Origin: an uncultured Oscillospiraceae bacterium | Lineage (GTDB): Bacteria; Bacillota; Clostridia; Oscillospirales; Oscillospiraceae | DNA: 64,000 nucleotides | Direction of reading: 5' to 3' | Assembly (NCBI GenBank): GCA_964401725.1 | Contig: CAYNZM010000002.1 | Coordinates: 3,711-67,710, forward strand | Shown: piece after piece, positions 13,884 to 63,090 of the stretch | Layout of the letters: each line of letters starts with the position of its first letter | Numbering within the stretch: position 1 is the first letter of the stretch | Program-made: the position numbers and the translations under genes | Notes under the pieces: generated by a model | What the model saw: the letters and a program-made list of their open reading frames with translations, nothing else | Told to the model about the DNA's origin: nothing | Databases searched by the model: none

Positions 13884-13897
13884 ACAACCGAATACAA

Positions 13898-13939: not shown

Positions 13940-13969
13940 AAGATTTAACGCCCTCTGCATCCGGCGGTT

Positions 13970-14596: not shown

Positions 14597-14694
14597 CTCC
14601 TTTCATGGCTCAAGCATATCCGATGGCACTATGCTTTAACACGAACCGGCGGTTGATTTCCGTACACTCTACCGCTGGTTGAGTATCGATCTGT

Positions 14695-15009: not shown

Positions 15010-15023
15010 AAATCAATTCCTCC

Positions 15024-15079
15024 GACATCTATATCACTAACTCAACCCTATGACATCTAAATGGCCTACTCAACCCTCC
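15024..15079. repeat. Imperfect 28-bp tandem direct repeat (two units, 21/28 identical)
   Basis: Unit 1 is GACATCTATATCACTAACTCAACCCTAT and unit 2 is GACATCTAAATGGCCTACTCAACCCTCC. The repeat lies 15-70 nt upstream of the TfoX-like gene start. Confidence 0.6.
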
Positions 15080-15190
15080 GCAGATTTCCTTTGATATGTT
15101 CTGTCGGAGCGGTTTTTGCGGACAAATCTGCTCTCCGCCGCTGACGGCCTAATGCCCGAAAAGCCCGGAAATACGGCACTTTTTCGGCGG

Positions 15191-16528: not shown

Positions 16529-16633
16529 ACGCGCCTCGCCCGTTTTTCTCCCATTGTACCACAGCCCCCGGAGAAAAAGGAGGACATTTTTCCCAAAACA
16601 GCGGATTTTCCGGTTTTTACCGCCGGTTCGCTC

Positions 16634-16662
16634 TTGCCAGCGGAGACTATTTGTGCTATATT
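16634..16662 (+). promoter_or_regulatory. Candidate promoter of the GH25-SLH lysozyme gene (TTGCCA-17-TATATT with TGc extension)
   Basis: Read directly from the sequence. Confidence 0.4.
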
Positions 16663-16718
16663 GATTGTAACTTTTGTAATTTCTTGTTTCTGTTTGCAAT
16701 GATTTGGATGGAGAGATT

Positions 16719-18191: not shown

Positions 18192-18237
18192 TGTTCACAG
18201 AAAGGACTTTATTTTTCCGAAAATATGCGGTAATATT

Positions 18238-18281
18238 ATAGGCTGAGAGCTTTTTGAACTCTCAGCCTATCCCTTTGCTTT
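18238..18281 (+). terminator. Hairpin after the GH25 gene
   Basis: ATAGGCTGAGAG-loop-CTCTCAGCCTAT followed by CCCTTTGCTTT. The U-tract is weak. Confidence 0.5.
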
Positions 18282-18297
18282 ACAGGAGAGACCAGCT

Positions 18298-19113
18298 ATG
18301 GATGAACTGGAACGCATAAAAAACATGACCCCGGAGGAACAGCAGGCCTACCTCGAAACCCTCCAGGCCTGCGAGCACAACTGCTCCACCTGCGAGGCGG
18401 AATGCTCCTCAAAGGTAAAGAAGCCCGCCAAGGTCGTCCTCATCGTCACGGGCGGCAAGGGCGGCACCGGTAAGAGCGTGATCTCGGTGCTTCTCGCGAA
18501 GGCCATCCGCAAGCAGGGCGCCAAAGCCGCTATCCTGGACGCGGACATCGCCTGCCCGGGCATTCCCGCCCTTCTCGGAATGACCGATCCCGTTCTGGGG
18601 GATATGCCGGAGCTTGCCCCGGTGGAGAACGCCGACGGCATCCCCGTCGTCAGCATGGGCATCATCACCGAGGACCCCAGCGAGCCCGTGATCTGGCCGG
18701 GAAAGGACATGGCAAAGCTGGCTGTGTGGCTCTTTAAGGACACGAACTGGCCGGCTGATCTGGACGTCCTCATCGTCGACATGCCCTCCGGCGCGGGGGA
18801 CATTCCCCTGGAGTATTACACCACCATGCCGGTGGATTACGCCCTGGCCGTGGCGGAGCCGGGGGAGCAGAGCTCCGGCGCTCTCCGTCGGGCGATCAAT
18901 CTCGCGGACATGCTCCGGGTGCCTGTCATGGGCGTCGTGGAGAACTTCGCGGAGGAGGATATGAACATCGCCGAAAGCTGCGAGACCGTCCCCGTAGTGG
19001 CGAGCCTGCCCTACGACGGCGCGATCCGCCGCGCCTCCAGCGCCGGCACCCTGGGACAGTACAATACGGACAAGCTGGATTTCCTCGCCCGCGCGGTGCT
19101 GGAGCTGAGGTAA
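18298..19113 (+). CDS. Mrp/NBP35-family P-loop ATPase (Fe-S cluster carrier-like)
   Basis: Deviant Walker A GGKGGTGKS and an N-terminal Cys-rich segment CEHNCSTCEAEC. Confidence 0.8.
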   Translation: MDELERIKNMTPEEQQAYLETLQACEHNCSTCEAECSSKVKKPAKVVLIVTGGKGGTGKSVISVLLAKAIRKQGAKAAILDADIACPGIPALLGMTDPVLGDMPELAPVENADGIPVVSMGIITEDPSEPVIWPGKDMAKLAVWLFKDTNWPADLDVLIVDMPSGAGDIPLEYYTTMPVDYALAVAEPGEQSSGALRRAINLADMLRVPVMGVVENFAEEDMNIAESCETVPVVASLPYDGAIRRASSAGTLGQYNTDKLDFLARAVLELR

Positions 19114-50568: not shown

Positions 50569-50691
50569 ATTCATACAAAAACCACTATACCACAATCTTC
50601 CCGGATTGGAAAGCGGCATATTCAAAAAATCCGGCGGTAAATTGTGGACTTTTTTGCCGGAACAGGGTATGATAGACGGGAGGTGAATTCT

Positions 50692-51564
50692 ATGCGAGCG
50701 CTCAATACCAAAATAGACCGCTTCTGCCTTGCCCATCCCCGGTTCGGCATCCCGCGGCTCATGCTGTACATCGTCATCGGAAACGTCCTCGTCTGGGTTT
50801 TCGGGCTCATGGACACCACGAACACGCTGTATTCTCTGCTGTACTTCGATCCCGCGCTGTTCTGCCGGGGTCAGGTCTGGCGGATCGTGACCTACGTCCT
50901 CGTGCCCACCTCCAGCGGTGTGCTGTGGCTGGCGGTGTCGCTGTACTTTTATTATTTCATCGGCTCCGCTCTGGAAAACGCATGGGGTGCGGGGAAGTTC
51001 ACGATTTACTATTTCAGCGGCCTTCTTCTGACGGCGCTGTATTCCCTCGTCGTCTACTGGCTGGGCGGGAGACGCATCCTGGTTTCCGCCACGTATCTGA
51101 ACCTCTCCCTGTTTTTCGCCTTCGCGACCCTATGGCCGGAGCAGCGTGTCCTTCTGTTTTTTATCATCCCGGTGAAGATGAAGTGGCTGGCTTGGGCGGA
51201 TGCCGCGCTGTTTGCCGTGGAGTTCGTCATGGCGCTGCTCGCGGGGCAGATCGGCTATGCTTTCATCCCCGTGGTGGCTATGGGAGCCTATCTCGTCTTC
51301 TGCGGGGAGTGGCTTTTCGACCGCGTCCGGCCCAGCCGGGTGAAGCAGGCCGCCAAGCAGAAGGCCCGGACCATCGAGTTCAAGCAGGCAGCCCAGCGCA
51401 TCCACCGCGAGCAGGCCGCCGCGGGCTACACCCGCAAATGCGCCGTCTGCGGCCGGACCGACGCGGACAATCCCGGCCTGGAATTCCGCTTCTGCAGCCG
51501 CTGCGCGGGCTATCATTGCTTCTGTGCCGACCACATCAACAACCACGTCCATTTTACGGAGTGA
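50692..51564 (+). CDS. Rhomboid-like membrane protein with a C-terminal Cys/His zinc-ribbon tail
   Basis: QVWRIVTYVLVP...YFYYFIGSALENAWGAGKF aligns with the rhomboid WR/GxxxE region. No TM6 His was seen. The tail is CAVCG...CSRCAGYHCFCADH. GGGAGG lies 8 nt before the ATG. Confidence 0.6.
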   Translation: MRALNTKIDRFCLAHPRFGIPRLMLYIVIGNVLVWVFGLMDTTNTLYSLLYFDPALFCRGQVWRIVTYVLVPTSSGVLWLAVSLYFYYFIGSALENAWGAGKFTIYYFSGLLLTALYSLVVYWLGGRRILVSATYLNLSLFFAFATLWPEQRVLLFFIIPVKMKWLAWADAALFAVEFVMALLAGQIGYAFIPVVAMGAYLVFCGEWLFDRVRPSRVKQAAKQKARTIEFKQAAQRIHREQAAAGYTRKCAVCGRTDADNPGLEFRFCSRCAGYHCFCADHINNHVHFTE

Positions 51565-51601: not shown

Positions 51602-53368
51602 ATGTCACGAAAGGAAGTCCGCGGGTGGTTTTTGAAGCTCGCGATATTCACGGCGCTGCTGGTGTGCCTGGGGACGCTGCTGTACGGCACGGCCTCCATG
51701 CTGGCGGAGGAGGGAAGTGCTCTCGCGGAGATCACGGAGAGCGCTGCCTACGCCTCTCCTACGCCGTCCCCCACGCCCACCCCCACCCCCACGCCGACAC
51801 CCACGCCGTCCCCCACGCCGGAGCCTACCCCGGTGCCCACGCCCCTGCCGGAGTTCTCGCCGGTGCGGAGCGTTTCGGAGGTCATCACCTCCACCCGCAT
51901 CGCCGTGGACGGGGAGCTCGTGGAAAACTATCAGGCGGATGACGCCCACCGCATCGACTTCGGCGGCGCGAGCGACTATACGTCCGTGAAGGGCATCATC
52001 ACCTTCCGGGGGAACAACTTCCGGGATACCGCCCAGTACGGCGTCGCGGAGATCGCGGACCGGCGCTTCGGGGACCACTGGCGGGTGGGGACGGACGGTC
52101 TCAGCTCCACCAGCGGCGGCTACTGGGGCGGCAGCGGCTGGACCGGGCAGCCCCTCATCGTGGAGTGGCCGGACAGCACGAAGCAGATCATGAACATGTA
52201 TGACTGGGCCAAGGAAAAGGACGGTCTTGTGGAGGTCATCTACTGCACGCTGGACGGATACGTCTACTTCCTGGACCTGGACACCGGGGACTACACCCGG
52301 GACCGCCTGTATCTCGGCTGGTCCTTCAAGGGAGCCGGAGCCCTGGACCCCCGGGGGTATCCCATCCTCTATGTGGGCGGCGGCCTTGCGAACAATTACG
52401 GCGAGCTGCCCCGGGTCCTGGTCGTGAGCCTTATCGACGGCTCGGTCCTCCACACCTTCGGAAACTACGACACCTTCTCGCCCCGGCCGGACTGGTCCGC
52501 CTTTGACAGCTCCGCCCTGGTGGACGCGGAGACGGATCAGCTCATCTACCCCGGCGAGAACGGCGTCCTCTACCTCGTGAAGCTGAACACGCGCTACGAC
52601 GAGGCCGCGGGGACTCTGTACATCGACCCGGAGGAGGTGAAATTCACCTTCGAGTCCGACTCCGCGAAGGACATGCTCTACGGCATGGAGGACAGCTCGA
52701 TCATCTGGCGGGGGCATCTCTTCCTCGCGGACAACGGCGGGGACTTCATCTGCCTGGATCTGAACACTCTCGAGATCGAGTGGCGCTTCGACTGCCTGGA
52801 CGACACGAATTGCACCGGTGTCCTGGAGGTGGACGGCACGGGCCGTCCGTACATCTACCTCTCCACCTCCTTCCACCTGGGCTTCCGAAGCTGGAGTTCC
52901 GCCACGATCCCGGTCTGGAAGATCGACGCCGTGACCGGGCGGGAGGTCTGGCACCACGACTATACCTGCTACTCCGAGGAGGGCCTCTCCGGCGGCGTGC
53001 AGGGGTCCCTGGCCCTGGGGAAGGGGAGCCTCGACGGCATCCTTTACGTCTCTATGGCGCGGCATCCGAACGGCTACAACGGCCAGCTCCTCGCGCTGGA
53101 CACCGCCACGGGCGACGAGCTCTGGACCTTCACCTCCGACAGCTATTCCTGGTCCACGCCCACCTGCTTCTACGACCGGGACGGGCATGGCTATGTGCTG
53201 TACGCCAGCTGCATCCAGGGAAAGCTCTACTGGCTGGACGGCCTGGACGGCACGCTGTACGACGTGTATCCCTTCGGCTGCACCACGGAGGCCAGCCCGG
53301 TGGTCTACAACAACACCGTGGTCATGGGCACGCGAAACCAGGAGCTCCTCGGCATCACCCTGACATGA
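51602..53368 (+). CDS. Membrane-anchored PQQ-like (BamB-type) beta-propeller repeat protein
   Basis: N-terminal TM segment, a (PT)n linker, then repeated blades ending in DG.LY..D..TG pattern (DGYVYFLDLDTGD, KLYWLDGLDGT, LLALDTATGDELW). Confidence 0.7.
   Translation: MSRKEVRGWFLKLAIFTALLVCLGTLLYGTASMLAEEGSALAEITESAAYASPTPSPTPTPTPTPTPTPSPTPEPTPVPTPLPEFSPVRSVSEVITSTRIAVDGELVENYQADDAHRIDFGGASDYTSVKGIITFRGNNFRDTAQYGVAEIADRRFGDHWRVGTDGLSSTSGGYWGGSGWTGQPLIVEWPDSTKQIMNMYDWAKEKDGLVEVIYCTLDGYVYFLDLDTGDYTRDRLYLGWSFKGAGALDPRGYPILYVGGGLANNYGELPRVLVVSLIDGSVLHTFGNYDTFSPRPDWSAFDSSALVDAETDQLIYPGENGVLYLVKLNTRYDEAAGTLYIDPEEVKFTFESDSAKDMLYGMEDSSIIWRGHLFLADNGGDFICLDLNTLEIEWRFDCLDDTNCTGVLEVDGTGRPYIYLSTSFHLGFRSWSSATIPVWKIDAVTGREVWHHDYTCYSEEGLSGGVQGSLALGKGSLDGILYVSMARHPNGYNGQLLALDTATGDELWTFTSDSYSWSTPTCFYDRDGHGYVLYASCIQGKLYWLDGLDGTLYDVYPFGCTTEASPVVYNNTVVMGTRNQELLGITLT
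51755..51844 (+). repeat. Low-complexity coding repeat encoding (Pro-Thr/Ser)n linker
   Basis: It encodes SPTPSPTPTPTPTPTPTPSPTPEPTPVPTP. The nucleotide sequence is reiterated CCCACGCC-type units. Confidence 0.6.
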
Positions 53369-53374
53369 AAATAA

Positions 53375-53404
53375 TACCGCCTGCGGTTTTCCACGCAGGC
53401 GGTA
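53375..53404. terminator. Hairpin between convergent beta-propeller and acyltransferase genes
   Basis: TACCGCCTGCG-loop-CGCAGGCGGTA. Confidence 0.5.
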
Positions 53405-53418
53405 ATTCTGTATGCGGT

Positions 53419-54525
53419 TTACTGTGCGTTCATGGGTTCCTGGGTGCAGACGGATTTGATCCATTTGATCATGGCGTTGTACCAGTCGTTGAAGACGGGA
53501 AGCCCCAGCAGGCTCATGACCCCGACGCCCACGAGAAGCGCCACGGGGACCGTCACATACCACTGATTGAGACCCGGAGCCGCGGCAAACACCAGGGCGT
53601 AGACGTTCCGCATGAACATGATGACGTAGGTGTGCAGCAGGTACGGGACCATGGTCCGGGTACCGCCGTCCCGCAGGACGGGCAGCGACCTGTCCGGTAT
53701 GAACACGAACAGGAAGATGATCTGCAGGAAGGACACGCCGTACCCCAGGACCCGGAGCAGCAGACCCTTTCCGATGCCGTAGGAGAACAGGGCAAATTCC
53801 GGATGGGCGGGATCACCCTGGAAGGAGGCCCAGTAGTAGAAGAAGTCGATGTGGAAAACGCCCTTCACGTTCAGCCAGCCCCACACGCCCAGGACCGCCA
53901 TGGTGGCGATGAGCACCGGGACCTTCGGGAGGTTTTCGAGCTTTCGTACGTCCTCCCGGCTGAGCTTCATGCCGATGAGGTAAAACGGCAGAAACCCGAT
54001 GGTGCGGCTGATGCTCATGAAATGCCCCACGTCCGGGCAGAACGCTCCCACGAGAAGCGCCACGGCGAAGGAGATCGGCACGATGTACTTGATTTGCTGA
54101 AGGGCTTTTGTCAGCAGCTTCCAGAAGAACATGCACATAAGGTACCAGTACGCGAACGTCGGGGTAAAGAGGTTCTGAGCGCTGGTGCCGTAGCACAGGA
54201 CGAAGAGGCTGTTGAAGATGAGGTACGGTACCAGAAAATCGAAGATCGCGCTCTGGTAGCATTTATAGCCCTTTTTGGAGAAGTACCCGGAGATAAAGCA
54301 GAACCCGGGCATGGTGATCATCCGGGACCAGCAGACGATGACGGTGACGAGCCAGTGGGCGGTGATGTTCACCGGGGCGGCGCCGGAGCCGACGCCGGTC
54401 TGGGTGAGCATGTGCTCCGCGATGACGTTGAACAGAAGGATGTAGCGGATGTTATCGGCCCGGAACCAGCGGGCCTTGGGCGCGGCTACGGCAGCGCCGG
54501 GCAGAGGAGCGGCGATGGTTTCCAT
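53419..54525 (-). CDS. Acyltransferase-3 family integral membrane O-acyltransferase
   Basis: The RWFRADNIRYILLFNVIAEH start is typical of the family, and about 10 TM segments follow. AAGGAGA lies 7 nt before ATG 54525. Confidence 0.75.
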   Translation of the reverse strand: METIAAPLPGAAVAAPKARWFRADNIRYILLFNVIAEHMLTQTGVGSGAAPVNITAHWLVTVIVCWSRMITMPGFCFISGYFSKKGYKCYQSAIFDFLVPYLIFNSLFVLCYGTSAQNLFTPTFAYWYLMCMFFWKLLTKALQQIKYIVPISFAVALLVGAFCPDVGHFMSISRTIGFLPFYLIGMKLSREDVRKLENLPKVPVLIATMAVLGVWGWLNVKGVFHIDFFYYWASFQGDPAHPEFALFSYGIGKGLLLRVLGYGVSFLQIIFLFVFIPDRSLPVLRDGGTRTMVPYLLHTYVIMFMRNVYALVFAAAPGLNQWYVTVPVALLVGVGVMSLLGLPVFNDWYNAMIKWIKSVCTQEPMNAQ

Positions 54526-54646
54526 ATGTCTGTCTCCTTGGAAAAATTCACTCCCTCGATTATAAAATCTTTTATTTTTCCCGTCAATAGGCAACTTCAT
54601 CCGGGATTTGGGTGAAAAATATCCCGTCTCCGGTGCCGGGAAGCGG

Positions 54647-54675
54647 TTGTAATCCCGTGGAAAGCGTGGTACAAT
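54647..54675 (+). promoter_or_regulatory. Candidate promoter of the envelope-decoration operon (TTGTAA-17-TACAAT with TGg extension)
   Basis: Read directly from the sequence, 84 nt upstream of ATG 54759. Confidence 0.5.
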
Positions 54676-54758
54676 TTATATATTTGGTGGACAGGCCGGT
54701 TTGCGTTTTGTTAATCACGCTTAACGGCTGTTAATCTTATTCCAGAGAGGACTTCGCC

Positions 54759-56519
54759 ATGAACGACAATCCCGACCGCGGTACGTACTGGCAGGGCTGG
54801 CGGAAGCGGTTCCTTACCCTTCTGGCTCCGGCGTTCCTTATGAGCTTCACCGTGGTCTTTTTCGGACCGCTGGACATCGTGAACGCGAACCAGGCGTACC
54901 TTACCTTCTCGGCGGGGAGCCTGGTGCCGGCCTTCGGTCTTGCGACGCTGGGCATCACCCTGGTCATCGCGGCGGTGTTTGCCCTGCTCCCCGGAAGGGC
55001 CCGGGGCATCGCCATGGGGCTTCTTTTGGGACTCGCGGTGATGGCGTATCTCCAGGGGTCGTTCCTCAATGGCGACGTTCTGCAGAAGCTGGACGGCAAC
55101 ACCTTCGACTGGCACGACTTCCCCCGGCAGGCCACCCGGAACCTCCTGCTGTGGCTCGCGGTGCTGGCGGGGCTTTCGGTGCTGGGGCTGTTCTTCCCGG
55201 AGCAGGCCCGGACCGTGACCCTCATCGCGTCTCTCGCGCTGGTGGCGGCCCAGGCCGTGGCCCTTGTGACCACCTGGGTGCCGGAGGACCGCTCGGAGCC
55301 CAATCTGCAGCTCTCCGGCGCGGACCAGTTCACGTTTTCCACGGACGAGAACATTATTTTCATCACCCTCGACCAGTTCAATCCCCTGATCTTCGAGGAG
55401 CAGCTCGCCGCCGACCCCTCTCTGGAGGAGACGTTCAAGGACTTCCTGTACTTCGACAACATGTCCTCCTGCTACTCCTTCACCTTCCCGAGCCTCCTGT
55501 ACCTCGCGACGCACCAGTACTTCGACACCACCGTCCCCACCCGGCAGGCGGTGTATAACGCCTGGCACAGCGACTCCGCCGCGGGCTTCTTCGACGCCCT
55601 GCATGAAAACGGCTACGAGGCGAACCTCTACATGGAATCGAACTATGCCGCTCTCGGCGCGGAGAACATGCTGGGCAAGGCGGACAACGTGGTGGAGGCG
55701 GGACGACTTGTGGTGACGCCGCTGTTTTTTGAGTTCGTTCTCGACATGTCCCTCTATCGCTACATGCCCATCATGCTCAAAAACGATTTCTGCGTCTCCA
55801 CCGGCGGCATCGTGGACATCTCCACCTTCCAGGGGGTCACGAAGCTCCGCATCAACTACGACTTCCGCTCCTCCCTGGAGGAGGAGGGCATCACCCTCAC
55901 GGACGAGCACAGCATGTTCCAGTGGTACCACATGGCCGGAGCGCATTTCCCGTATGTCGTGGACTACGACGGCTACCTATGCGACGAGGACGAGTCCGAT
56001 CGCGAAACAGCGCTGCACGGCTATCTCGTGATGCTGGATACGTTCTTCCAATACCTGAAGGACGCCGGGGTCTACGACGACGCGGCCATCATCATCTCCG
56101 CCGACCACGGGTATTTCGAGTGCTTCCAGACCGTCGGCATGATCAAGCTCCCCGGCGAGCACCGGGACGAGATGGAGATTTCCTCCGCGCCGGTGGCCCA
56201 GGAGGACGTGATGCCCACGATCCTCTCCCTGCTGGGGAAGGACTACGAGGACTACGGCACGACGTTCTTCGACTGGTCCGAGGGTGACCACCGCATCCGC
56301 TGCACGCGGGTCTGGGGGTACATGACCCAGTACCCGGAGGTGGATTGGATCGGGAACCTGGACCAGTGGGACGCGGAGGCCAACGGCTTCGAGCGGTACA
56401 ACGTCTTCGGCGTGTTCTTCTACGACGGCGACCGGGACGATATTCTCTACAAGGAACGCTATTGGTACAATTACGGCTACGCGGACCTCATCGAGCCCTT
56501 GTACGACAGCTTCTACTGA
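54759..56519 (+). CDS. LtaS/EptA-like alkaline-phosphatase-superfamily membrane enzyme (phospho-headgroup transferase)
   Basis: About 5 N-terminal TM segments are followed by an extracytoplasmic domain. It carries IIFITLDQF (metal ligand), YSFTFPS (candidate Thr nucleophile), WYHMAGAHFPY and IIISADHGY. Confidence 0.7.
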   Translation: MNDNPDRGTYWQGWRKRFLTLLAPAFLMSFTVVFFGPLDIVNANQAYLTFSAGSLVPAFGLATLGITLVIAAVFALLPGRARGIAMGLLLGLAVMAYLQGSFLNGDVLQKLDGNTFDWHDFPRQATRNLLLWLAVLAGLSVLGLFFPEQARTVTLIASLALVAAQAVALVTTWVPEDRSEPNLQLSGADQFTFSTDENIIFITLDQFNPLIFEEQLAADPSLEETFKDFLYFDNMSSCYSFTFPSLLYLATHQYFDTTVPTRQAVYNAWHSDSAAGFFDALHENGYEANLYMESNYAALGAENMLGKADNVVEAGRLVVTPLFFEFVLDMSLYRYMPIMLKNDFCVSTGGIVDISTFQGVTKLRINYDFRSSLEEEGITLTDEHSMFQWYHMAGAHFPYVVDYDGYLCDEDESDRETALHGYLVMLDTFFQYLKDAGVYDDAAIIISADHGYFECFQTVGMIKLPGEHRDEMEISSAPVAQEDVMPTILSLLGKDYEDYGTTFFDWSEGDHRIRCTRVWGYMTQYPEVDWIGNLDQWDAEANGFERYNVFGVFFYDGDRDDILYKERYWYNYGYADLIEPLYDSFY

Positions 56520-56537
56520 TCCTGTGAGGCACGGAAC

Positions 56538-58424
56538 ATGATAAACTTCCTGACAGACATCTTCGCCCATGTGATGGACTTCTGCTATGGGCTTCTGCCC
56601 AATTGGATCGCGGCCATCGCGCTGTTCACGCTGCTGACGAAGCTCTTGCTGCTGCCGGTGTCCCTGTGGTCCAATCGCAACGGCCTCAAGATGGTCTCCA
56701 TCCTGCCCCGGGTGAACCGCATCAAAGCGGAGTTTTACGGCGACCGGGAGCGCATCGACGAGGCCACCGCGGCGATGTATAAGCAGACGGGCTATCATCC
56801 GCTCCTCACCATGGTGCCGCTTGCCATCCAGATCATCGTCCTGCTGGGACTCATCGGCGTCATCCACCGCATCGCGGACACGGGCACCGCGCCGGGCCTC
56901 GGCCTCGTGCCGGTGACGGATGGGGGAGCCGCGTGGCTCATGCCCCTCGCGGCGGCGGGAGCGGCGGTGATCCTGAGCCTTGCTCAGAACCGCGTGAACC
57001 CCCTCCAGCGGGAGCAGTCCCGCCCGGAGCAGCTCGTAACAAACGGCATCTCCGTGGGCATTTCCTTGGTCCTCGGCGCGTTCGTGTCCGTGGGCGTCGC
57101 GCTGTACTGGAGCTTCTCGAACCTCATGACCATTGGCGTACAGCTTCTGTGTAACCTCCTCCAGCCGCCGAAAAACTACGTCGATTACGCGGACCTCGCC
57201 GCCAGCCGGGAGGAGCTGCGGAAGCTCGATTCCATGGGCCCGACCCAGACCAAGGAGCTCAAGGCCCGGGAAAAAGCCGACTACAAGCGCTTTTTCTCCG
57301 TGGTGAACAAGAAGCTCGTCTTCTACTCCGAGGGCAGCGGGTTTTACAAATACTTCCAGAATATCATATCCGAGCTTCTCCGCCGGTCCAACGTGACCAT
57401 CCACTACATCACCTCCGACCCCAACGACCAGATTTTTGCCATTGCGAAATCCGAACCCCGCATCCATCCGTACTACATCGGCGAGCGCCGGATGATCACC
57501 ATGTTCATGAAGCTGGACGCGGACATCGTCTGCATGACCATGCCGGACCTGGAAACGTACCAGTACAAACGCTCCTACGTCCGCAGGGACATCGAGTACG
57601 TCTACATCTTCCACGGGATGTTCTCGGGCCTTGTGACCCTCCGCAGCGGCGCTCTGGACCACTTCGACACGCTCCTGACCCCCACCCCGGGCTTCGAGGA
57701 GGAGATGCGGGCCTGGAACCGGGTCCACGGCCTGCCGGACCAGCGCATGGTCCCCTGCGGATACGGCGTCATCGACAACATGGCCGCCCAGTACGACGCC
57801 ATGGAAACAACCGACCACGACCCGAAAACCGTCCTCATCGCTCCCTCCTGGCAGGAGGGGAACGTGCTGGATTCCTGCCTGGCGGACCTGGCGGAGCCTC
57901 TTCTCGCGGCGGGGTACGACATTACCGTCCGGCCCCACCCCCAGTATCTCCGGCGGTTTCCCCAGCGCTTCGAGGCGATAAAATCCGCCAGCGCGGGGTA
58001 TGCCCCGGACCGCTTCCGCTTCCAGACGGATTTCAGCTCCAACGAGACGGTGTTTTCCGCGGACATCCTGGTGACGGACTGGTCCAACATCGGCTACGAA
58101 TACGCCGTGGCGACGAAAAAACCCGTCCTCTTCGTGAACACCCCCCGGAAGCTCGTAAACGACGACTGGACGGAGGAGGACGTAAAAAAATACGCCCCGG
58201 ACGACAATATCCGCTCCCTGCTGGGGGTGGCGGTGGAGCCGGAGGCGGTCCGGGATCGCGCGGCGTCCATCGCCGGGGACATGCTCGCCCACCGGGAGGA
58301 CTACGCCGACGTCATCGAATCCGTGCGCCGGGAGAGGCTCTACCACTTCGGGGAGAGCGGCGTTTACGGCGCGAAATACCTCCTGGGACGCATCCTGGAA
58401 AACCAGAAGAAAGCGAAGGAATAA
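56538..58424 (+). CDS. Fusion: YidC/Oxa1-like five-TM module and TagF-like CDP-alcohol phosphotransferase domain
   Basis: N-terminal half: LFTLLTKLLLLPVSLW, MYKQTGYHPL and GVALYWSFSNLMTIGVQ (YidC core). C-terminal half: VLIAPSWQEG, VRPHPQ and ILVTDWSNIGYEYAVATKKPVLFV (Glyphos_transf pattern). Confidence 0.7.
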   Translation: MINFLTDIFAHVMDFCYGLLPNWIAAIALFTLLTKLLLLPVSLWSNRNGLKMVSILPRVNRIKAEFYGDRERIDEATAAMYKQTGYHPLLTMVPLAIQIIVLLGLIGVIHRIADTGTAPGLGLVPVTDGGAAWLMPLAAAGAAVILSLAQNRVNPLQREQSRPEQLVTNGISVGISLVLGAFVSVGVALYWSFSNLMTIGVQLLCNLLQPPKNYVDYADLAASREELRKLDSMGPTQTKELKAREKADYKRFFSVVNKKLVFYSEGSGFYKYFQNIISELLRRSNVTIHYITSDPNDQIFAIAKSEPRIHPYYIGERRMITMFMKLDADIVCMTMPDLETYQYKRSYVRRDIEYVYIFHGMFSGLVTLRSGALDHFDTLLTPTPGFEEEMRAWNRVHGLPDQRMVPCGYGVIDNMAAQYDAMETTDHDPKTVLIAPSWQEGNVLDSCLADLAEPLLAAGYDITVRPHPQYLRRFPQRFEAIKSASAGYAPDRFRFQTDFSSNETVFSADILVTDWSNIGYEYAVATKKPVLFVNTPRKLVNDDWTEEDVKKYAPDDNIRSLLGVAVEPEAVRDRAASIAGDMLAHREDYADVIESVRRERLYHFGESGVYGAKYLLGRILENQKKAKE

Positions 58425-58427
58425 GCC

Positions 58428-59228
58428 ATGCTCATCCGCTGCAACGACAGCGACATCCCCCGGGTCCGGGACTACATCGGGGAGGACAAAACTCTCTGCT
58501 TCTACTTCTATATGGACATGCTGGCCTGCGGCACGGAGGCCGAGGGTCTCGGTATGTGGACCTGCGAACAGGACGGGACCATCACCGCCGCGGCCTATCG
58601 CTACTACGACGCTCTGCATCTCTACAGCCGCACCGGCATCGACCCACAGGAGCTTCTGCCTCTCCTTCGGGAGCTGGACCCCAAGGTCATCACGGGAAAG
58701 CAGGCGGACATAGACCGTCTCGCGCCGCTGCTTCCCCCGGGGCGGTACGCCTATGAGCTGAGCCACGTCATCACCGCCGACAAGGAGATGGACGGCAGAA
58801 GCGAGCTTACCGTCACTCCGGCGGGGGAGGCGGATATCCCGGAGATCGCGTCCCTCATGATGACGGAGCACATCTACAACACCGTTTACACCTACGACAG
58901 CCTGTGCGAGAGCCTCATCCGCCGGGTGAGGGAGGGCTTCGGACGGCTCTTCGTCATGCGGACGGGGGACGGCCGTCTCGCCGCCACCAACGCTCTGTCT
59001 GCGGAGACGGAGGAATTCGCCGTCATCAACGGCCTCGTGACGAACCCGGACATGCGGGGCCAGGGCCTGGGCCGGGCCATCACCGCCAGCACCTGGAATC
59101 TCGTTCGGGACGAGGGGAAGCGTGGCCTTGCCTTCCTCGGGGCGGACAACGAAAACACCCTGTCCCTCCATCGGCGCATGGGATATACGTTTTTGGGGCT
59201 TTACGCACGGTTAATTCGGGAGGATTGA
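58428..59228 (+). CDS. Two-domain GNAT-family N-acetyltransferase
   Basis: C-terminal acetyl-CoA motif NPDMRGQGLGRAIT. There is a 3-nt gap to each neighbouring gene. Confidence 0.7.
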   Translation: MLIRCNDSDIPRVRDYIGEDKTLCFYFYMDMLACGTEAEGLGMWTCEQDGTITAAAYRYYDALHLYSRTGIDPQELLPLLRELDPKVITGKQADIDRLAPLLPPGRYAYELSHVITADKEMDGRSELTVTPAGEADIPEIASLMMTEHIYNTVYTYDSLCESLIRRVREGFGRLFVMRTGDGRLAATNALSAETEEFAVINGLVTNPDMRGQGLGRAITASTWNLVRDEGKRGLAFLGADNENTLSLHRRMGYTFLGLYARLIRED

Positions 59229-59231
59229 GAT

Positions 59232-61031
59232 ATGCAGGCATTGATGCTGGCCGCCGGCATGGGCAAACGCCTGGGAGCCTATACGAACAATCAAACGAAA
59301 TGCATGGTGCAGGTGGGGGGCAGGACCTTGCTGGAGCACGCCGCGGAGGCCCTGCGGCAGGCAGGCATCCGGAAGTTCACCCTGGTGGTGGGGTATGAGG
59401 GCGAAAAGCTCAAGGCTTTCGCCCGGGAGAAGCTCGCGGACTTCGACCTCACCTTCGTGGAGAACCCGGACTACGCCGCCACGAACAACATCTATTCCCT
59501 GTATCTCGCTCGGGAGGTCCTGACCTCGGACGACACGATCCTCCTGGAGTCGGACCTCATCTACGAGCCACGGCTCATCCGGGAGCTCATGGACTTCGAC
59601 GCCCCCAACGTGGTGGCCGTGGCGAAATACCGGCCCTGGATGGATGGGACCATGACCCTCGTGGACGAGAACGGCGTCATCACAGAATTCGTGGAGAAGC
59701 GGGATTTCCGCTTTGACCGGGCGGAGGAATACTGCAAGACCGTGAACGTCTATAAGTTCAGCCGGTCCTTCTCCGCGGACCAGTACGAGCCCTTTCTCAG
59801 CGCCTACATCCGGGCCTATGGGGACAACCAGTACTACGAGATGGTCCTCAAAGCCCTCGCTCACCTGCCGTTTGCGGGCCTGCGGGCGTACGAGCTCGGG
59901 GACATCAAGTGGTACGAGATCGACGACGCTCAGGACCTCGACATCGCAAACACGCTGTTTGCTCCCCCGGCGGAGCGTCTCCACGCCTACGGACGGCATT
60001 TTGGGGGCTACTGGCGGTATGACCGTCTGCGGGATTTCTGCTATCTCGTGAACCCTTACTATCCGCCCCGGAAGATGCAGGACCAGATGCGGTACATGTA
60101 CGATGCCCTGCTGACCCAGTACCCCTCCGGCATGGCGGATATGCGGCTGCTCGCCGGGAAGATGTTCGGCATAAAGCAGGAGCATATCCTCGTTGGCAAC
60201 GGTGCCGCGGAGCTCATCAACACCCTGGGCCGTATTCTTTCCGGCAAAACGGCGGTGACCCTCCCGGCCTTCAACGAGTACGTCCGCTGTTTCCCGGACT
60301 GCGCGTTTACCCATATCCCCCTCGCGGAGACGGGCTATTGCTTCGATCTCCACCGGCTGCGGGAAGCTGCGGCCTCCTGCGGGAATCTCATCCTCGTCAA
60401 TCCCGACAACCCCACCGGCGCCTTCCTCGCGAAAAACGAGGTCCTGGAGCTCTGTGAGATCACCCGCGCCGCGGGGTCGAGGCTTATAGTGGACGAATCC
60501 TTCGTGGACTTTGCCGCGGGGGAGAAGCGCTTCACCCTCCTGGAGGACGATATTCTGAGCCGATTCCCGAACCTCGTCGTCGTGAAGAGCATCTCGAAAT
60601 CCTACGGCGTGCCCGGTCTGCGGCTCGGGGTCGTGGCCTCCGCCGACACAGAGCTTCTCGCCCGGATGAAGGACCTTCTCCCGGTGTGGAACATCAATTC
60701 CTTCGCGGAGTACTTCCTGCAGGTCAGCGGTCTGTACGCCGGGTCCTACGCCGCCGCCTGTGATCGCATCGCGGAGAACCGGCAGGGGATGATCGAGCGT
60801 CTTGCGTCGTATCCGTTTTTGACGCCCTGCCCCTCGGAGGCGAATTACGTGATGTGCCGGGTGGAGGGCATGACCTCCAAGGCCCTGGCGGATAAGCTCC
60901 TGGAGCGGGATATCCTCATAAAAGACCTTGCCCCGAAGGACGGCTTCGGCGGGGAGAGCTTCGTGCGCATCGCCGTCCGGGACGAGGCCGACAACGAGGC
61001 CCTGTACGCCGCGCTGGACGAGCTCGGCTGA
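59232..61031 (+). CDS. Fusion: LicC-like cytidylyltransferase and class I/II PLP-dependent aminotransferase/decarboxylase (HisC/CobD-like)
   Basis: N-terminal half: MLAAGMGKRLG, NNIYSLYLA and WYEIDDAQDL (LicC pattern). C-terminal half: NPDNPTG and the Lys motif SISKSYGVPGLRLG. Confidence 0.8.
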   Translation: MQALMLAAGMGKRLGAYTNNQTKCMVQVGGRTLLEHAAEALRQAGIRKFTLVVGYEGEKLKAFAREKLADFDLTFVENPDYAATNNIYSLYLAREVLTSDDTILLESDLIYEPRLIRELMDFDAPNVVAVAKYRPWMDGTMTLVDENGVITEFVEKRDFRFDRAEEYCKTVNVYKFSRSFSADQYEPFLSAYIRAYGDNQYYEMVLKALAHLPFAGLRAYELGDIKWYEIDDAQDLDIANTLFAPPAERLHAYGRHFGGYWRYDRLRDFCYLVNPYYPPRKMQDQMRYMYDALLTQYPSGMADMRLLAGKMFGIKQEHILVGNGAAELINTLGRILSGKTAVTLPAFNEYVRCFPDCAFTHIPLAETGYCFDLHRLREAAASCGNLILVNPDNPTGAFLAKNEVLELCEITRAAGSRLIVDESFVDFAAGEKRFTLLEDDILSRFPNLVVVKSISKSYGVPGLRLGVVASADTELLARMKDLLPVWNINSFAEYFLQVSGLYAGSYAAACDRIAENRQGMIERLASYPFLTPCPSEANYVMCRVEGMTSKALADKLLERDILIKDLAPKDGFGGESFVRIAVRDEADNEALYAALDELG

Positions 61032-61107
61032 GGGATTTTTACTTGCCAATCCCCGCGGGGGATGCTATACTAAACCGGATACAATAACAGAAAGAAGGAT
61101 AATCACC

Positions 61108-61368
61108 TTGAAAAAGCTCCGTTTCGCGTTTTTCTTCACCGGCATGGCCGTGGCGCTGATGGTCCCGGCCTTTGCGTATGTGGACCCCTCCGTGACCTCC
61201 ATGGCGATTCAGGCCGTGGCGGGCATCGTGGTGGCGGTAGCCGCCGTGGCAGGCGTGCTTTGGTCCAAGGCCAAGAAGAAGGCCAAGCAGGTCCTGAACA
61301 TCGACGAGAACGCCGGCAAGACCGTGGAGGCCGACGTCGTCATCACCGAGGACGAAAAGAAGGACTGA
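61108..61368 (+). CDS. Small membrane protein (two hydrophobic segments, Lys-rich then acidic tail)
   Basis: TTG start 8 nt after GAAGGA. Length is 86 aa. A 13-bp-stem terminator follows. No family was recognised. Confidence 0.45.
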   Translation: MKKLRFAFFFTGMAVALMVPAFAYVDPSVTSMAIQAVAGIVVAVAAVAGVLWSKAKKKAKQVLNIDENAGKTVEADVVITEDEKKD

Positions 61369-61392
61369 AAACCCGGGAAAACAAACAAGAAA

Positions 61393-61428
61393 CCGGCTCC
61401 GTTCCAACCAGGGAACGGAGCCGGTTTT
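61393..61428. terminator. Bidirectional intrinsic terminator
   Basis: 13-bp stem CCGGCTCCGTTCC/GGAACGGAGCCGG, flanked by AAA and TTTT. Confidence 0.75.
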
Positions 61429-61435
61429 GCCGCTG

Positions 61436-61870
61436 TCATGCCCCGTATTTATCGAATAAATACTCGATGGCGAGCTTGTAGCTCTCGAAGCCGCGGCCGG
61501 CAAAGGTCTTTTCGCAGGCCATGCCGGGGTAGGAGACGCGCCGGAAATCCTCCCGGGCGTTCACGTCGGAAAGATGCACCTCCGCCGCCGGGAGCGACAC
61601 CGCTTTCAGGGCGTCCAGGATCGCGACGCTCGTGTGGGTGTAGGCCGCGGGATTGATGACGATGCCGTCCACCACGCCGTACGCCGACTGGATCATGTCC
61701 ACGAGAACCCCCTCGTGGTTCGACTGGAAGACCTCGCACTCGATGCCGTGGCCGGCGCAGATCTCCCGGATGTACCGGTCCAGGTCGTCGTAGGTCCGGC
61801 GTCCGTAGATGTCCGGCTCGCGGATGCCGAGCATGTTGAGGTTTGGTCCGTTCAGGATGAGAAGCTTCAT
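61436..61870 (-). CDS. aroQ: Type II 3-dehydroquinate dehydratase
   Basis: ILNGPNLNMLGIREPDIYG, QSNHEG and INPAAYTHTS motifs. Confidence 0.9.
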   Translation of the reverse strand: MKLLILNGPNLNMLGIREPDIYGRRTYDDLDRYIREICAGHGIECEVFQSNHEGVLVDMIQSAYGVVDGIVINPAAYTHTSVAILDALKAVSLPAAEVHLSDVNAREDFRRVSYPGMACEKTFAGRGFESYKLAIEYLFDKYGA

Positions 61871-63090
61871 GGCAATGCCTCCAGGATCGCGTCCGCCGCG
61901 TGTTCGGCGGTGGTATCGTTTTCGATTTGGATGTCCGCAAAGCGCTCGTACAGCGGCTTTCGCGCCTCGTACAGAGCCGCGGGGGAGGTCCGCTGGGACA
62001 GGGGGCGGCCTTCGGTGGGGAGGGCGTTTACGTTCCGCCGGAGCCACACGAGCACGCCGTTCTGCCGCAGGAGAGGGTAGTTTTCCTCCCGGGTGACGCA
62101 GCCGCCGCCGGTGGCGATAATGGCCCCGGAGCGTTTCCCGAGGTCCGCGAGGACCTCCGTCTCCCGGCGTCGGAAGCCGGGTTCCCCCTCGGCGGCGAAG
62201 ATGTCCGGGATAGACATGCCTGTCCGACGGACGATCTCATCATCCGCGTCGAGAAGCTCCCGCCCCAGGCGCTCAGCGAGGATCGCTCCGACGGTGGATT
62301 TCCCGCAGCCCGGCATGCCGATGAGGACGATGTTCTCCATCTGCCGGGTGAGGTCCCGGGTGATGGTCTCCACTTGTCCGTCAGGGATGGATGTTTTTGC
62401 AAACTGCTCCGCCGAACCCCGGGCCTGGGCCACCAGCATCCGCAGGCCGTTGGCGCGGGGGATGCCCCGGGCCTCTGCCTCCAGCAGAAGCCGGGTCCGC
62501 AGGGGGTTGTAGATGAGGTCCAGCACCGCCTCCAGCCGGGGAAACGCCTCCAGATCGACCGGGGAGGCCTCTGTACTCGGGTACATGCCCACCGGCGTCG
62601 CGTTCACCAAAATCCGGGCGTCGGCATGGTTTGCGAGGTTTTCGTAGTTGTCCGGACCATGTCTCGAGATGCGGACGATGGGTTCCGCGTCCAGGTCTTT
62701 CAGCGCCGCGGCCACCGCGAGGGATGCCCCGCCGGTGCCGAGGACCACGGCCTTTTTCCCTGCCAGGGGGACGTTCAGGCTCCGGGCGAGGGCCAGGAAC
62801 CCCGCGTAGTCCGTGTTGTCCCCGTGCCAGCCCTCGGGGGTGCGGACGAGGGTGTTCACGCTGCCCACTGCCCGGGCCGCGGGGGATAGGCTCACGCAGA
62901 ATGGCATCACGGTCTTTTTGTAGGGGATCGTGACGTTCATGCCCGCGAGGTCCGTCGCGGCAAGGAAATCCGCCACCGCCCCCGGTTCGAGCTCGCAGAG
63001 GCCGTAGTCGTACCCCGCAAGGCGGGCGTGGATCGCCGGGGACCAGGAATGCCCCAGGTGCCGCCCCAGGAGCCCGAAGCTATTTCCCAT
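61867..63090 (-). CDS. Fused shikimate dehydrogenase / shikimate kinase
   Basis: N-terminal AroE (GHSWSPAIH, VLGTGGASLAV) and C-terminal AroK with P-loop GMPGCGKST. ATGA-type overlap with aroQ. Confidence 0.9.
   Translation of the reverse strand: MGNSFGLLGRHLGHSWSPAIHARLAGYDYGLCELEPGAVADFLAATDLAGMNVTIPYKKTVMPFCVSLSPAARAVGSVNTLVRTPEGWHGDNTDYAGFLALARSLNVPLAGKKAVVLGTGGASLAVAAALKDLDAEPIVRISRHGPDNYENLANHADARILVNATPVGMYPSTEASPVDLEAFPRLEAVLDLIYNPLRTRLLLEAEARGIPRANGLRMLVAQARGSAEQFAKTSIPDGQVETITRDLTRQMENIVLIGMPGCGKSTVGAILAERLGRELLDADDEIVRRTGMSIPDIFAAEGEPGFRRRETEVLADLGKRSGAIIATGGGCVTREENYPLLRQNGVLVWLRRNVNALPTEGRPLSQRTSPAALYEARKPLYERFADIQIENDTTAEHAADAILEALP

Follow-up and report, generated by a model that had tools for sequence, protein, structure and literature searches.

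How might a bacterium place small phosphate-linked groups on its envelope when no exporter for them is encoded nearby? This question is raised by a six-gene locus in a stretch of 64,000 nucleotides from an uncultured Oscillospiraceae bacterium (GenBank assembly GCA_964401725.1, contig CAYNZM010000002.1, positions 3,711 to 67,710), which was analysed as a whole and is referred to here as the window; all coordinates are those of the window. The locus consists of an acyltransferase-3 (AT3) gene on the minus strand and then, on the plus strand, genes for a sulfatase-like membrane protein, a fusion of a YidC-like module with a TagF-like domain (YidC::TagF), a GNAT-family acyltransferase, a fusion of a LicC-like domain with a pyridoxal phosphate (PLP) enzyme (LicC::PLP), and a small open reading frame (ORF). 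We find that the locus is not a one-off but one member of a widespread modular system. We put at roughly 50% the probability that this system attaches a small phosphate-linked head group to a component of the envelope, by means of the relay set out below.

A three-part core conserved across phyla

The gene by which the system can be followed is the YidC::TagF fusion (56538-58424, plus strand; 628 aa). More than 100 full-length homologues with 53-100% identity came out of a protein search, every one with both domains, and a scan of one genome per GTDB species found the fusion in at least 480 species genomes. Carriers include Oscillospiraceae, Anaerotruncus sp. G3 and, at 45-50% identity, many Coriobacteriia, among them Eggerthella sinensis, Gordonibacter, Adlercreutzia mucosicola, Raoultibacter, Collinsella and Berryella; most relatives are metagenome-assembled genomes (MAGs). 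The fusion was also found in MAGs labelled Planctomycetia, Bacteroidaceae/Bacteroidales, Methanocorpusculum and Lentisphaerae (L018, L020, L022, L064, L075, L082), where it is 45-50% identical to the proteins of Firmicutes and Coriobacteriia. These odd taxonomic labels likely reflect binning contamination, with horizontal transfer as a possible alternative.

To follow what travels with the fusion, ORFs were called mechanically in 85 loci and searched with the window proteins and with family hidden Markov models (HMMs), which makes the presence counts dependent on threshold. Forty loci extend for 5 kb or more to either side of the fusion gene, and we refer to these as the full-flank set. The small module encoded by the last gene of the window locus is present in 39 of the 40, and 38 hold the complete trio of fusion, sulfatase-family homologue and small module, where the sulfatase HMM contains small-module columns and so is matched by stand-alone small ORFs as well. 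Most loci that lack the sulfatase-like or small genes end less than 2 kb downstream of the fusion gene.

The three parts are joined to one another in different ways in different lineages. The small protein is a separate ORF of 80-140 aa in Firmicutes, and in Coriobacteriia it forms the N-terminal ~100 residues of a sulfatase-like protein of 680-880 aa that is encoded directly after the fusion gene. Three loci (L027, L034, L068) go further and encode YidC::TagF::small::sulfatase in one polypeptide of ~1400 aa, a chain in which Pfam recognises 60KD_IMP, Glyphos_transf and Sulfatase. That the three core parts work together is best supported by these gene fusions. The preliminary description of the locus had treated the small ORF as a mere closer of the gene run; its presence in 39 of 40 full-flank loci and its fusion to the other partners make it a core component instead. 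Tandem small::sulfatase paralogues also stand behind a single fusion gene, two in L044 and three in L074, which fits one donor-making enzyme serving several outer transferases. The L074 array is from Berryella wangjianweii (11874-18981 of that locus) and the L044 array from a Gordonibacter sp. (11802-16162), and each paralogue keeps its own AxA-YVDPS module, a motif described below.

The YidC::TagF fusion protein

The first 211 residues of the fusion (56538-57170, plus strand) form a YidC/Oxa1-like module with five transmembrane (TM) helices. It scores 94.8 bits against PF02096 (cut-off 35) and 84.6 bits against TIGR03592 (cut-off 84.3), and a profile built from the fusion family finds E. coli YidC with an E-value of 1e-15 and B. 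halodurans YidC2 with 1e-13. K35 is invariant in 43 homologues. In the alignments it falls on R366 of E. coli YidC and on the conserved TM1 arginine of B. halodurans YidC2, such that the charge of the hydrophilic groove is supplied by a lysine instead of an arginine. All NCBIfam equivalog models for housekeeping YidC score the module far below their cut-offs (e.g. 60 versus 282 bits), and judging by these profiles it appears to be a divergent member of the YidC/Oxa1 family at the level of the domain only.

Residues ~245-628 (57270-58424, plus strand) form a TagF-like domain of the GT-B, cytidine diphosphate (CDP)-alcohol phosphotransferase type, which matches PF04464 at 39.6 bits (cut-off 22.1) and should lie in the cytoplasm given the YidC topology of what precedes it. 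An AlphaFold2 (AF2) model of the fusion (mean predicted local distance difference test, pLDDT, 87.6) has TagF (3L7L) as its top Foldseek match, with an E-value of 1.4e-9. Only GT-B proteins occur among the top 50 Foldseek matches of the whole model, so the YidC fold rests on sequence profiles. Four motifs of the TagF-like domain are invariant, FHG, PSWQ, RPHPQ and TDWS, and with them residues H359, S437/Q439, R465/H467 and T513-D514-W515-S516; the family profile reached TarL weakly. Judging by their motifs, the two invariant histidines, H359 in FHG and H467 in RPHPQ, may be the counterparts of the catalytic H444 and H584 of TagF.

The outer enzyme and the small protein

The gene that precedes the fusion (54759-56519, plus strand) encodes a membrane-anchored, LtaS/EptA-like protein of the alkaline phosphatase superfamily, 586 aa in length, which matches the sulfatase family PF00884 at 30.6 bits (cut-off 25). 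Its AF2 model (pLDDT 89.3; predicted template modelling score, pTM, 0.84) has five TM helices within residues 7-171 and then an alpha/beta domain, and the top Foldseek matches are PbgA/YejM, MCR-1, LtaS, LtaP and EptA. Between Firmicutes and Coriobacteriia homologues identity is only ~25%, yet D205, T242, H391, H396, D449 and H450 are the same throughout, and at the nucleophile position of these homologues there is no C/S-x-P-x-R motif, the formylglycine motif of true sulfatases. T242 and the metal ligands thus look like the threonine-nucleophile site of LtaS/EptA-type phosphotransferases and not like the CxPxR site of true sulfatases. T242, D205 and D449-H450 were equated with T300, E255 and D475/H476 of LtaS by motif position, with the DH pair alone directly aligned. 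Direct sequence matches in the PDB are weak (E-values 0.005-0.02; LtaP 0.005, and LtaS), and the LtaS model NF053595 gives 28.4 bits against a cut-off of 970, so there is no similarity at equivalog level to that model. We therefore regard the protein as a separate family within the alkaline phosphatase superfamily.

The small protein (61108-61368, plus strand; 86 aa, TTG start) has no match to any Pfam family, and what defines it is a conserved pattern that resembles a phage procoat: a signal-like hydrophobic helix, an AxA site followed by YVDPS, a TM helix, a basic stretch and a cytoplasmic IDEN..K.VE segment. Alanine occupies position -1 of the AxA site in 57 of 57 sequences and position -3 in 55 of 57. 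After the site, Y-x-D-P-S is invariant (Y1, D3, P4, S5) and opens an acidic external tail of ~10 aa; on the cytoplasmic side, I-D-E-N-x-x-K-x-V is almost invariant. A full HMMER scan of 1.84 billion representative sequences recovered the module in 430 representative clusters at E<=1e-3, either alone (68-140 aa) or as the N-terminus of proteins of ~700 aa, with one protein of 1361 aa that carries it at residues 681-741. Because the AxA motif is kept even inside the triple fusions, we suggest that processing by signal peptidase to a free N-terminal tyrosine matters. Identity across phyla is ~50-55% for the small module, 45-50% for the fusion and ~25% for the sulfatase domain; the conservation of the small module thus resembles that of the fusion and is far above that of the sulfatase domain, as would fit a direct partner of the fusion. 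If the model developed below is right, the small protein would represent a new conserved family of mini-proteins with an invariant processed N-terminus.

Exchangeable head-group cassettes

Around this constant core, the genes for making the head group form an exchangeable cassette. A LicC-like or CTP_transf_like gene lies within 8 kb of the fusion in 26 of the 40 full-flank loci, a choline/ethanolamine kinase in 13, a phosphoenolpyruvate (PEP) mutase in 6 and a CobD-like enzyme in 5. The GNAT plus LicC::PLP arrangement of the window recurs in L006, L007 and L010-L013/L015-L017, and a LicC::PLP homologue adjoins an Atopobiaceae core in L030. Other Firmicutes carry a phosphonate cassette of NTP_transf(::CTP_transf)::PEP mutase, phosphonopyruvate decarboxylase (Ppd) and an iron-dependent alcohol dehydrogenase (Fe-ADH), and further loci carry GNAT, a class V aminotransferase (Aminotran_5) and a CTP_transf_like::GFO-type oxidoreductase. 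The Coriobacteriia have LicC with a helix-turn-helix domain (HTH::LicC), LicC::choline kinase, LicD and an EamA transporter amid glycosyltransferases and ABC transporters, and one lineage combines the fusion with an ornithine-cyclodeaminase-like protein, LicC::PLP, an 88-aa small ORF, a GT2 glycosyltransferase and a priming transferase. The exchange can be seen most directly in a relative whose fusion is 78% identical and whose locus sits where it does in the window, flanked by the rhomboid/PQQ-like genes and by the shikimate operon. There, GNAT and the small gene are kept and LicC::PLP is replaced by a nucleotidyltransferase, an amidohydrolase, a fusion of LicC with a choline/ethanolamine kinase and an amino-acid-type permease. 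In L086 (6371-12140), from a close relative and at this chromosomal position, the replacing genes read HTH::NTP-transferase, Amidohydro_3, LicC::choline/ethanolamine kinase and AA_permease; the amidohydrolase recurs in 5 of 40 loci.

In the window, the cassette is the LicC::PLP gene (59232-61031, plus strand; 599 aa). Its N-terminal 250 residues (59232-59981) are a LicC/PntC-like nucleotidyl (cytidylyl) transferase domain that matches PF12804 at 56.5 bits and, in the PDB, LicC (1JYK, E 1.6e-13) and 6PD1 (E 2.4e-11), itself a fusion of a nucleotidyltransferase with a class V aminotransferase. Residues 251-599 (59982-61031) are a CobD-like PLP domain (PF00155, 105.5 bits) whose best NCBIfam model is the threonine-phosphate decarboxylase TIGR01140, at 191 bits and below the cut-off of 290; hisC follows at 137 bits. 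In the PDB, 6OUX, named "threonine phosphate decarboxylase-like enzyme", scores highest (131.9 bits), ahead of an entry named HisC (104) and of CobD itself (1LC5, 103.6). The domain thus comes closest to phospho-amino-acid decarboxylases, and it probably acts as a decarboxylase. The product name of 6OUX is the one used for Sulfurospirillum SMUL_1544, a phosphoserine decarboxylase that yields phosphoethanolamine, and judging by this shared name 6OUX may be that enzyme. According to a title cited in PMC6461909, the SMUL_1544 gene governs norcobamide biosynthesis.

The likely product of the cassette would then be CDP-ethanolamine (or CDP-aminopropanol). Phosphoethanolamine made from phosphoserine is the simplest choice because no kinase is needed, and it is further favoured because the best structural relative bears the name of the norcobamide enzyme and because the sister locus swaps in a permease and an amino-alcohol kinase while retaining GNAT. 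Since no PEP mutase is found in the window, the product should be a phosphate ester and not a phosphonate. A LicC::PLP homologue with 65% identity also occurs without the YidC::TagF fusion, in L090 (8001-9806), where its neighbours are a GDSL lipase and a run of small genes that lack annotation, and where an acyltransferase-3 gene lies at a distance of 5 kb, so the cassette also serves other systems. A 265-aa protein encoded after this LicC::PLP gene was considered as a GNAT and rejected, as it is not a GNAT homologue; L090 is thus uninformative on where GNAT acts.

The GNAT gene of the window (58428-59228, plus strand; 266 aa) is translationally coupled to the fusion gene, with a gap of 3 nt. 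The protein matches PF00583 at 31.8 bits (cut-off 20.7; residues 167-253), carries an RGQGLGR motif of the acyl-CoA type, and is covered by PF00583/FR47 over residues 156-254; the N-terminal ~150 residues have no Pfam match, so that of the two-domain GNAT proposed in the preliminary description the C-terminal part was recognised and the N-terminal half matched nothing. Eight of the 40 full-flank loci have a GNAT, always 3-4 nt behind the fusion gene. Seven of these also have a PLP enzyme expected to yield a primary amine, and the eighth (L009) has a kinase/permease cassette. An orthologue (31% identity over the full length, E 2e-39) holds the same place, directly behind the fusion gene, in a locus whose cassette differs, and in the full-flank set GNAT was never seen with PEP-mutase/Fe-ADH loci nor with the choline-kinase loci of Coriobacteriia. 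This confinement to cassettes with a PLP enzyme or an amino-alcohol kinase fits the earlier idea that GNAT N-acylates the head group.

A proposed relay across the membrane

The domain identities, conserved residues, co-occurrence, gene fusions and cassette exchange described above were observed directly, and from them we infer a series of enzymatic steps. The PLP domain, by family membership, would decarboxylate a phospho-amino acid, most economically O-phospho-L-serine to phosphoethanolamine, with O-phospho-L-threonine to 1-amino-2-propanol phosphate as the alternative, and the LicC-like domain would convert the product into a CDP-activated head group. Next, with the YidC-like module keeping it at the membrane, the TagF-like domain would carry out a single transfer of the phospho-head-group to a hydroxyl on an acceptor bound to the membrane, for which diacylglycerol, a glycolipid and a lipid-linked glycan are candidates. 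The intermediate would then have to reach the outer leaflet; this is the least certain step, and the hydrophilic groove of the YidC-like module is the only candidate for it within the conserved core. Outside, the LtaS/EptA-like enzyme would shift the phospho-head-group from the lipid donor to an extracellular acceptor via a phospho-threonine, as in the mechanism of its family, and this final acceptor would be encoded outside the locus. The 86-aa protein would be an obligate partner that probably tethers the outer enzyme to the fusion, possibly while seated in the YidC-like groove. GNAT would probably N-acylate the amino head group, and AT3 would add an optional, lineage-specific O-acylation.

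The general logic of the preliminary description, namely activation with cytidine triphosphate, transfer at the inner face by the TagF-like domain and LtaS-like action outside, is backed by the gene fusions and by the recurrent cytidylyltransferase neighbours. Its suggestion that the TagF-like domain might polymerise the head group now looks unlikely: choline, aminoethylphosphonate-type and amino-alcohol cassettes share the same core, and most of their products offer no free hydroxyl to extend, so that a single transfer fits better. The further idea that the YidC-like module supplies the export step gains plausibility because the fusion is strictly conserved and lipid scrambling by YidC has been published: in vitro, glycerophospholipids are scrambled by E. 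coli YidC and likewise by Oxa1 and Get1, and simulations show the same for MisCB (bioRxiv 10.1101/2023.09.01.555937).

More tentatively, and with the odds somewhat against us, we propose that a YidC/Oxa1 domain has been diverted from inserting proteins to exporting small molecules and, through its fusion to the TagF-like transferase, makes up the inner half of a three-component relay that carries CDP-activated head groups across the membrane. The other two components would be the mini-protein processed by signal peptidase and the outer transferase of the alkaline phosphatase superfamily. The cargo might be phosphoethanolamine, phosphocholine, aminoethyl- or hydroxyethyl-phosphonate or a serinol-type group, and the carrier might be a dedicated lipid or the mini-protein itself, as with DltX, leading to installation on the envelopes of many gut Firmicutes and Coriobacteriia. 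Such a relay would supply the tailoring step that is missing from pathways for cell-surface phosphonates and, for bacteria that lack phosphatidylethanolamine or phosphatidylcholine, a route that generates donors for PptA/EptA-like transferases.

Several points weigh against the head-group relay. L024, from Anaerotruncus sp. G3 (NZ_KE159678.1), has the fusion with no sulfatase-like gene or small module within ~9 kb, and carries a cassette of NTP_transf::PEP mutase, Ppd and Fe-ADH. Of the two full-flank loci that depart from the trio, L024 alone lacks both partners, and it indicates that the fusion can apparently work without its partners or that these lie elsewhere. For fourteen of the 40 full-flank loci, no nucleotidyltransferase lies within 8 kb. 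Over its full length, the outer enzyme finds its top structural match in PbgA/YejM, which binds lipids and is non-catalytic. The preference for phosphoserine over phosphothreonine comes down to two observations, the higher score of 6OUX over CobD and the kinase-free locus. Finally, the substrates of characterised TagF-family enzymes are lipid-linked polymers for which ABC transporters serve as exporters, and no TagF-family enzyme is known to make a phospholipid.

Alternative explanations

Might the decoration take place in the cytoplasm only? The TagF-like domain would then act on a lipid-linked glycopolymer or glycolipid anchor that is made elsewhere and has its own exporter, the YidC part would be an anchor, and the sulfatase-like protein would be a builder or primer of the LtaS/LtaP type with no part in a re-transfer. 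Characterised TagF, TarL and TagB enzymes do work in this manner, the fold and motifs of TagF are present, the weak direct sequence matches of the sulfatase-like protein are to LtaP and LtaS, and genes for ABC transporters, glycosyltransferases and LicD adjoin the fusion in several Coriobacteriia and other loci. But a plain anchor has no need of a full five-TM YidC core whose groove residues are invariant at 45-50% identity across phyla, no transporter or glycosyltransferase lies near the window locus or those of its close relatives, and the joining of all three parts in one polypeptide argues for a single stream of substrate. We consider this explanation unlikely. Another possibility keeps the YidC-like module closer to its ancestral role, as a dedicated insertase or chaperone that inserts the small module and the outer enzyme, or holds them beside the TagF-like domain, and moves no lipid itself, with the intermediate crossing by some other route. 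In M13 procoat and Pf3 coat, the classical substrates of YidC, an AxA site is followed by an external tail that is short and acidic, then by a single TM helix and a basic tail, and the small module, with its leader, AxA site, acidic tail, TM helix and basic stretch, resembles them; the invariant groove K35 could pair with D3, and the small module is better conserved across phyla (~50-55%) than the sulfatase domain (~25%). However, an insertase acts catalytically and transiently, and permanent fusion to a transferase and, in the triple fusions, to its own "substrate" would be unexpected for a pure biogenesis factor; the transbilayer step would also be left unexplained in loci that have no other candidate for it. 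As a full account of the system we find this decidedly unlikely, and as a part of it insertion is not mutually exclusive with the lipid-crossing reading, so that both could hold.

It is also conceivable that the end product is a membrane lipid. The fusion would make an unusual phospholipid or phosphonolipid head group (e.g. phosphatidylethanolamine-like and N-acylated) and equilibrate it between leaflets, and the sulfatase-like protein would remodel or sense it. The PEP-mutase cassette of L024, where neither sulfatase nor small module lies within 9 kb of the fusion, would suit such a pathway, as would the top full-length structural match to the lipid-binding PbgA/YejM. Phosphonate neighbourhoods with multiple sulfatases in Selenomonas have, in addition, been assigned previously to a phosphonolipid group (PMC8942020). 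Against this, the invariant threonine nucleophile and metal ligands indicate a catalytic phosphotransferase and not a sensor, tandem small::sulfatase paralogues behind one fusion gene suggest several acceptors, and many fusions sit amid polysaccharide genes (glycosyltransferases, a priming transferase, Wzt-type ABC transporters). We regard a membrane lipid as an improbable end product, and we continue to favour the relay of a phospho-head-group to an extracellular acceptor.

Genomic setting of the locus

The ORFs of the locus are arranged as the preliminary description had them, with gaps on the plus strand of 18 nt between the sulfatase-like and fusion genes, 3 nt between fusion and GNAT and 3 nt between GNAT and LicC::PLP, and the seven Pfam families it had predicted all score above their gathering thresholds. 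The divergent AT3 gene (53419-54600, minus strand) matches PF01757 at 32.2 bits (cut-off 31). Its ORF extends from an ATG at 54600, but the ATG at 54525 is the likelier start: it is preceded by AGGAGA and gives a protein of 368 aa, the median length of the AT3 homologue cluster in related loci, where called orthologues at the same position have 352-353 aa. AT3 occurs in only 4 of the 40 full-flank loci, all of them close relatives of the window. The expectation that the five or six genes co-occur as a unit thus proved correct for an operon-like unit co-conserved in relatives, and AT3 is a lineage-specific addition to it.

Between AT3 and the sulfatase-like gene lies a single AT-rich divergent region of 233 bp (54526-54758), with a GC fraction of 0.44 against 0.63 for the window. 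Consensus scanning places promoter-like sigma-70 sites in both directions, TTGACG-17-TATAAT on the minus strand and TTGTAA-17-TACAAT with a TG on the plus strand, in keeping with the promoter region first proposed there. Another promoter-like site, TTGCCA-17-TATACT with a TG, precedes the small ORF (61043-61071, plus strand) and is a consensus match only, at 10 of 12 positions. The TTG start of the small ORF sits 8 nt past GAAAGAAGGA. A 16-bp GC-rich hairpin at 61390-61427, identified by a terminator scan and from the sequence, separates the end of the small ORF from aroQ, which converges on it from the minus strand. It probably terminates transcription from both sides, so that both the TTG-started membrane ORF and the strong terminator described earlier are present. 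No riboswitch or other RNA element turned up when 53000-62000 was scanned against Rfam. As had been noted by eye, the locus is slightly less GC-rich (61.1% versus 63.3% for the rest of the window), but the difference is weak and third-codon-position GC (0.83-0.89) equals that of the other, housekeeping genes, so we see no sign of recent acquisition. Horizontal acquisition, a thought prompted by the lower GC, was rejected as unsupported on this ground and because the chromosomal site is the same in relatives with 78-81% identity.

The remainder of the window is of a housekeeping nature: a dcw cluster (MraY, FtsW, MurG, FtsZ), EF-G, UvrC, MutS2, Era, RecO, sporulation genes and a shikimate operon. 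Pfam scans, which covered most of the larger ORFs of the window and left several ORFs below ~170 aa outside, found no polysaccharide glycosyltransferase, priming transferase, Wzx/ABC exporter or PEP mutase; the earlier statement that the window has no exporter, priming transferase or PEP mutase is upheld in this range. The sole glycosyl or phospho-sugar transferases among the scanned ORFs are the peptidoglycan enzymes MraY and MurG of the dcw cluster.

Next to the locus, the order of genes is kept in relatives. The locus lies immediately upstream of the shikimate-pathway operon (aroQ, an aroE::aroK fusion, chorismate mutase and chorismate synthase; 61436-63090 and beyond, minus strand), and this order is conserved. 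On the other side, a rhomboid-like gene (50644-51564, plus strand) precedes a gene for a PQQ-like beta-propeller protein (51602-53368, plus strand; 588 aa) that is secreted or membrane-anchored and whose long linker is rich in Pro and Thr (PTPSPTPTPTPTP...); the two genes keep their place beside the locus in the relatives with 78-81% identity, and a bidirectional hairpin at 53375-53404 parts the PQQ-like gene from AT3. The Pro/Thr-rich linker could be a target of surface modification. An ORF of 747 aa at 47589-49832 (minus strand) has gene-like codon statistics and no Pfam match, and an unannotated gene of similar size occupies its position in relatives (L088, 915-3269; L089, 929-3019). Elsewhere in the window, a GH25 muramidase with three S-layer homology (SLH) domains is encoded at 16704-18191 (plus strand). 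Because the muramidase bears SLH domains, the organism should have a secondary cell-wall polymer that anchors SLH proteins, and this polymer is a possible acceptor for the decoration.

Implications

If the head-group relay is real, it would constitute a widespread and uncharacterised route of envelope decoration in Gram-positive bacteria, carried by at least 480 species-level genomes, among them those of cultivable genera from the human gut (Eggerthella, Gordonibacter, Adlercreutzia, Collinsella and Raoultibacter). The groups installed (phosphocholine, phosphoethanolamine, phosphonates) would be immunologically relevant. It would provide an in vivo case of an Oxa1/YidC-family groove acting on a lipid-linked substrate, for which the support so far comes from in vitro work and simulations only. 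It would also offer a concrete candidate for the post-activation steps of cell-surface phosphonate pathways, of which Rice et al. (2019) wrote that the steps past nucleotidyl activation "remain enigmatic" (PMC6697681). With its swappable cassettes, the system is of interest for glyco-engineering and can readily be put to the test.

Our literature search found no work on a YidC::TagF fusion or on its combination with a procoat-like module, an LtaS/EptA-like enzyme and lic-, pnt- or CobD-type cassettes, and a search on Eggerthella phosphocholine and on CDP-ethanolamine in teichoic acids returned nothing specific.

Comparison with known systems

By the profile and structure matches, each domain of the locus belongs to a known family at superfamily level and none at equivalog level. 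The outer enzyme resembles LtaS/LtaP, GacH, EptA/MCR-1, PptA, OpgB and BcsG in its five N-terminal TM helices, its extracellular alkaline-phosphatase-type domain, its threonine (T242) and its Asp/His metal ligands. It differs in that the likeness in sequence is only marginal (LtaP, E 0.005), in that it mostly carries or accompanies an extra procoat-like module, and in its predicted source of head groups. LtaS, GacH, EptA, OpgB and BcsG draw their phospho-head-group from a membrane phospholipid (phosphatidylglycerol or phosphatidylethanolamine). Whereas these known enzymes rely on bulk phospholipids, the enzyme of the locus is tied genetically to a predicted cytoplasmic CDP-dependent transferase.

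That transferase shares with TagF, TarL and TagB the GT-B fold, with 3L7L as top structural match, the family PF04464 and conserved motifs that contain histidines. The known enzymes are peripheral membrane proteins, whereas the domain in question is fused to a YidC-type five-TM core; and the neighbours of the core are cassettes of the CDP-choline, ethanolamine or phosphonate type and not tagD or tarIJ, and the likely donors are non-polymerisable. With the YidC/Oxa1 insertases the fusion has in common the complete five-TM core, the cytoplasmic hairpin and a positive charge in the groove (K35 versus R366). In contrast to these, it has no lipoprotein signal or large periplasmic domain, a transferase of 380 aa takes the place of the C-terminal ribosome-binding tail, the groove residue is lysine and not arginine, and the module is encoded in envelope-decoration loci.

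The cassettes point to other relatives. As in the Lic-1 system (LicA/B/C/D), there is a LicC-type cytidylyltransferase, and relatives of the core adjoin LicC::choline kinase, LicD and an EamA protein that is LicB-like; the window, however, has no LicA, LicB or LicD, its head group would come from the fused PLP enzyme, and transfer is predicted to be the work of the TagF-like and alkaline-phosphatase-superfamily enzymes. In a published survey of phosphocholine genes, no evidence was seen that Lic-1 and PptA-type transferases co-exist, and the donor of the latter was left unidentified (PMC10434233). The loci described here put LicC-type and alkaline-phosphatase-superfamily genes side by side. 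The fusion of a LicC-like nucleotidyltransferase to an enzyme that makes its substrate has precedents in the fusion of PntC with a transaminase for aminoethylphosphonate in T. denticola (Tde1415) and in PntC::PEP-mutase, with 6PD1 as a PDB match of the N-terminal domain (PMC6697681), and relatives of the core adjoin NTP_transf::PEP mutase, as in the PntC::PEP-mutase fusions. Unlike Tde1415, the PLP domain is of the CobD-like class I/II type and not a class V transaminase, and there is no PEP mutase in the window. CobD and 6OUX are its best NCBIfam and PDB matches; it stays under the equivalog cut-off for CobD (191 versus 290), is fused to a nucleotidyltransferase and has no cobamide genes nearby.

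In its overall logic, the proposed relay is closest to systems built from other proteins. GtrA/GtrB/GtrX, CsbB/GtcA/YfhO and DltB/DltX/DltD each load a membrane carrier in the cytoplasm, involve a small membrane component in the crossing and transfer the cargo outside. The relay proposed here shares this logic and differs in its protein families and in a cargo that would be a phospho-alcohol and not a sugar or D-alanine. Decoration of the envelope with phospho-head-groups is thus known; what is new here is the combination of parts, with a substantial chance that it includes a genuinely new use of the YidC fold.

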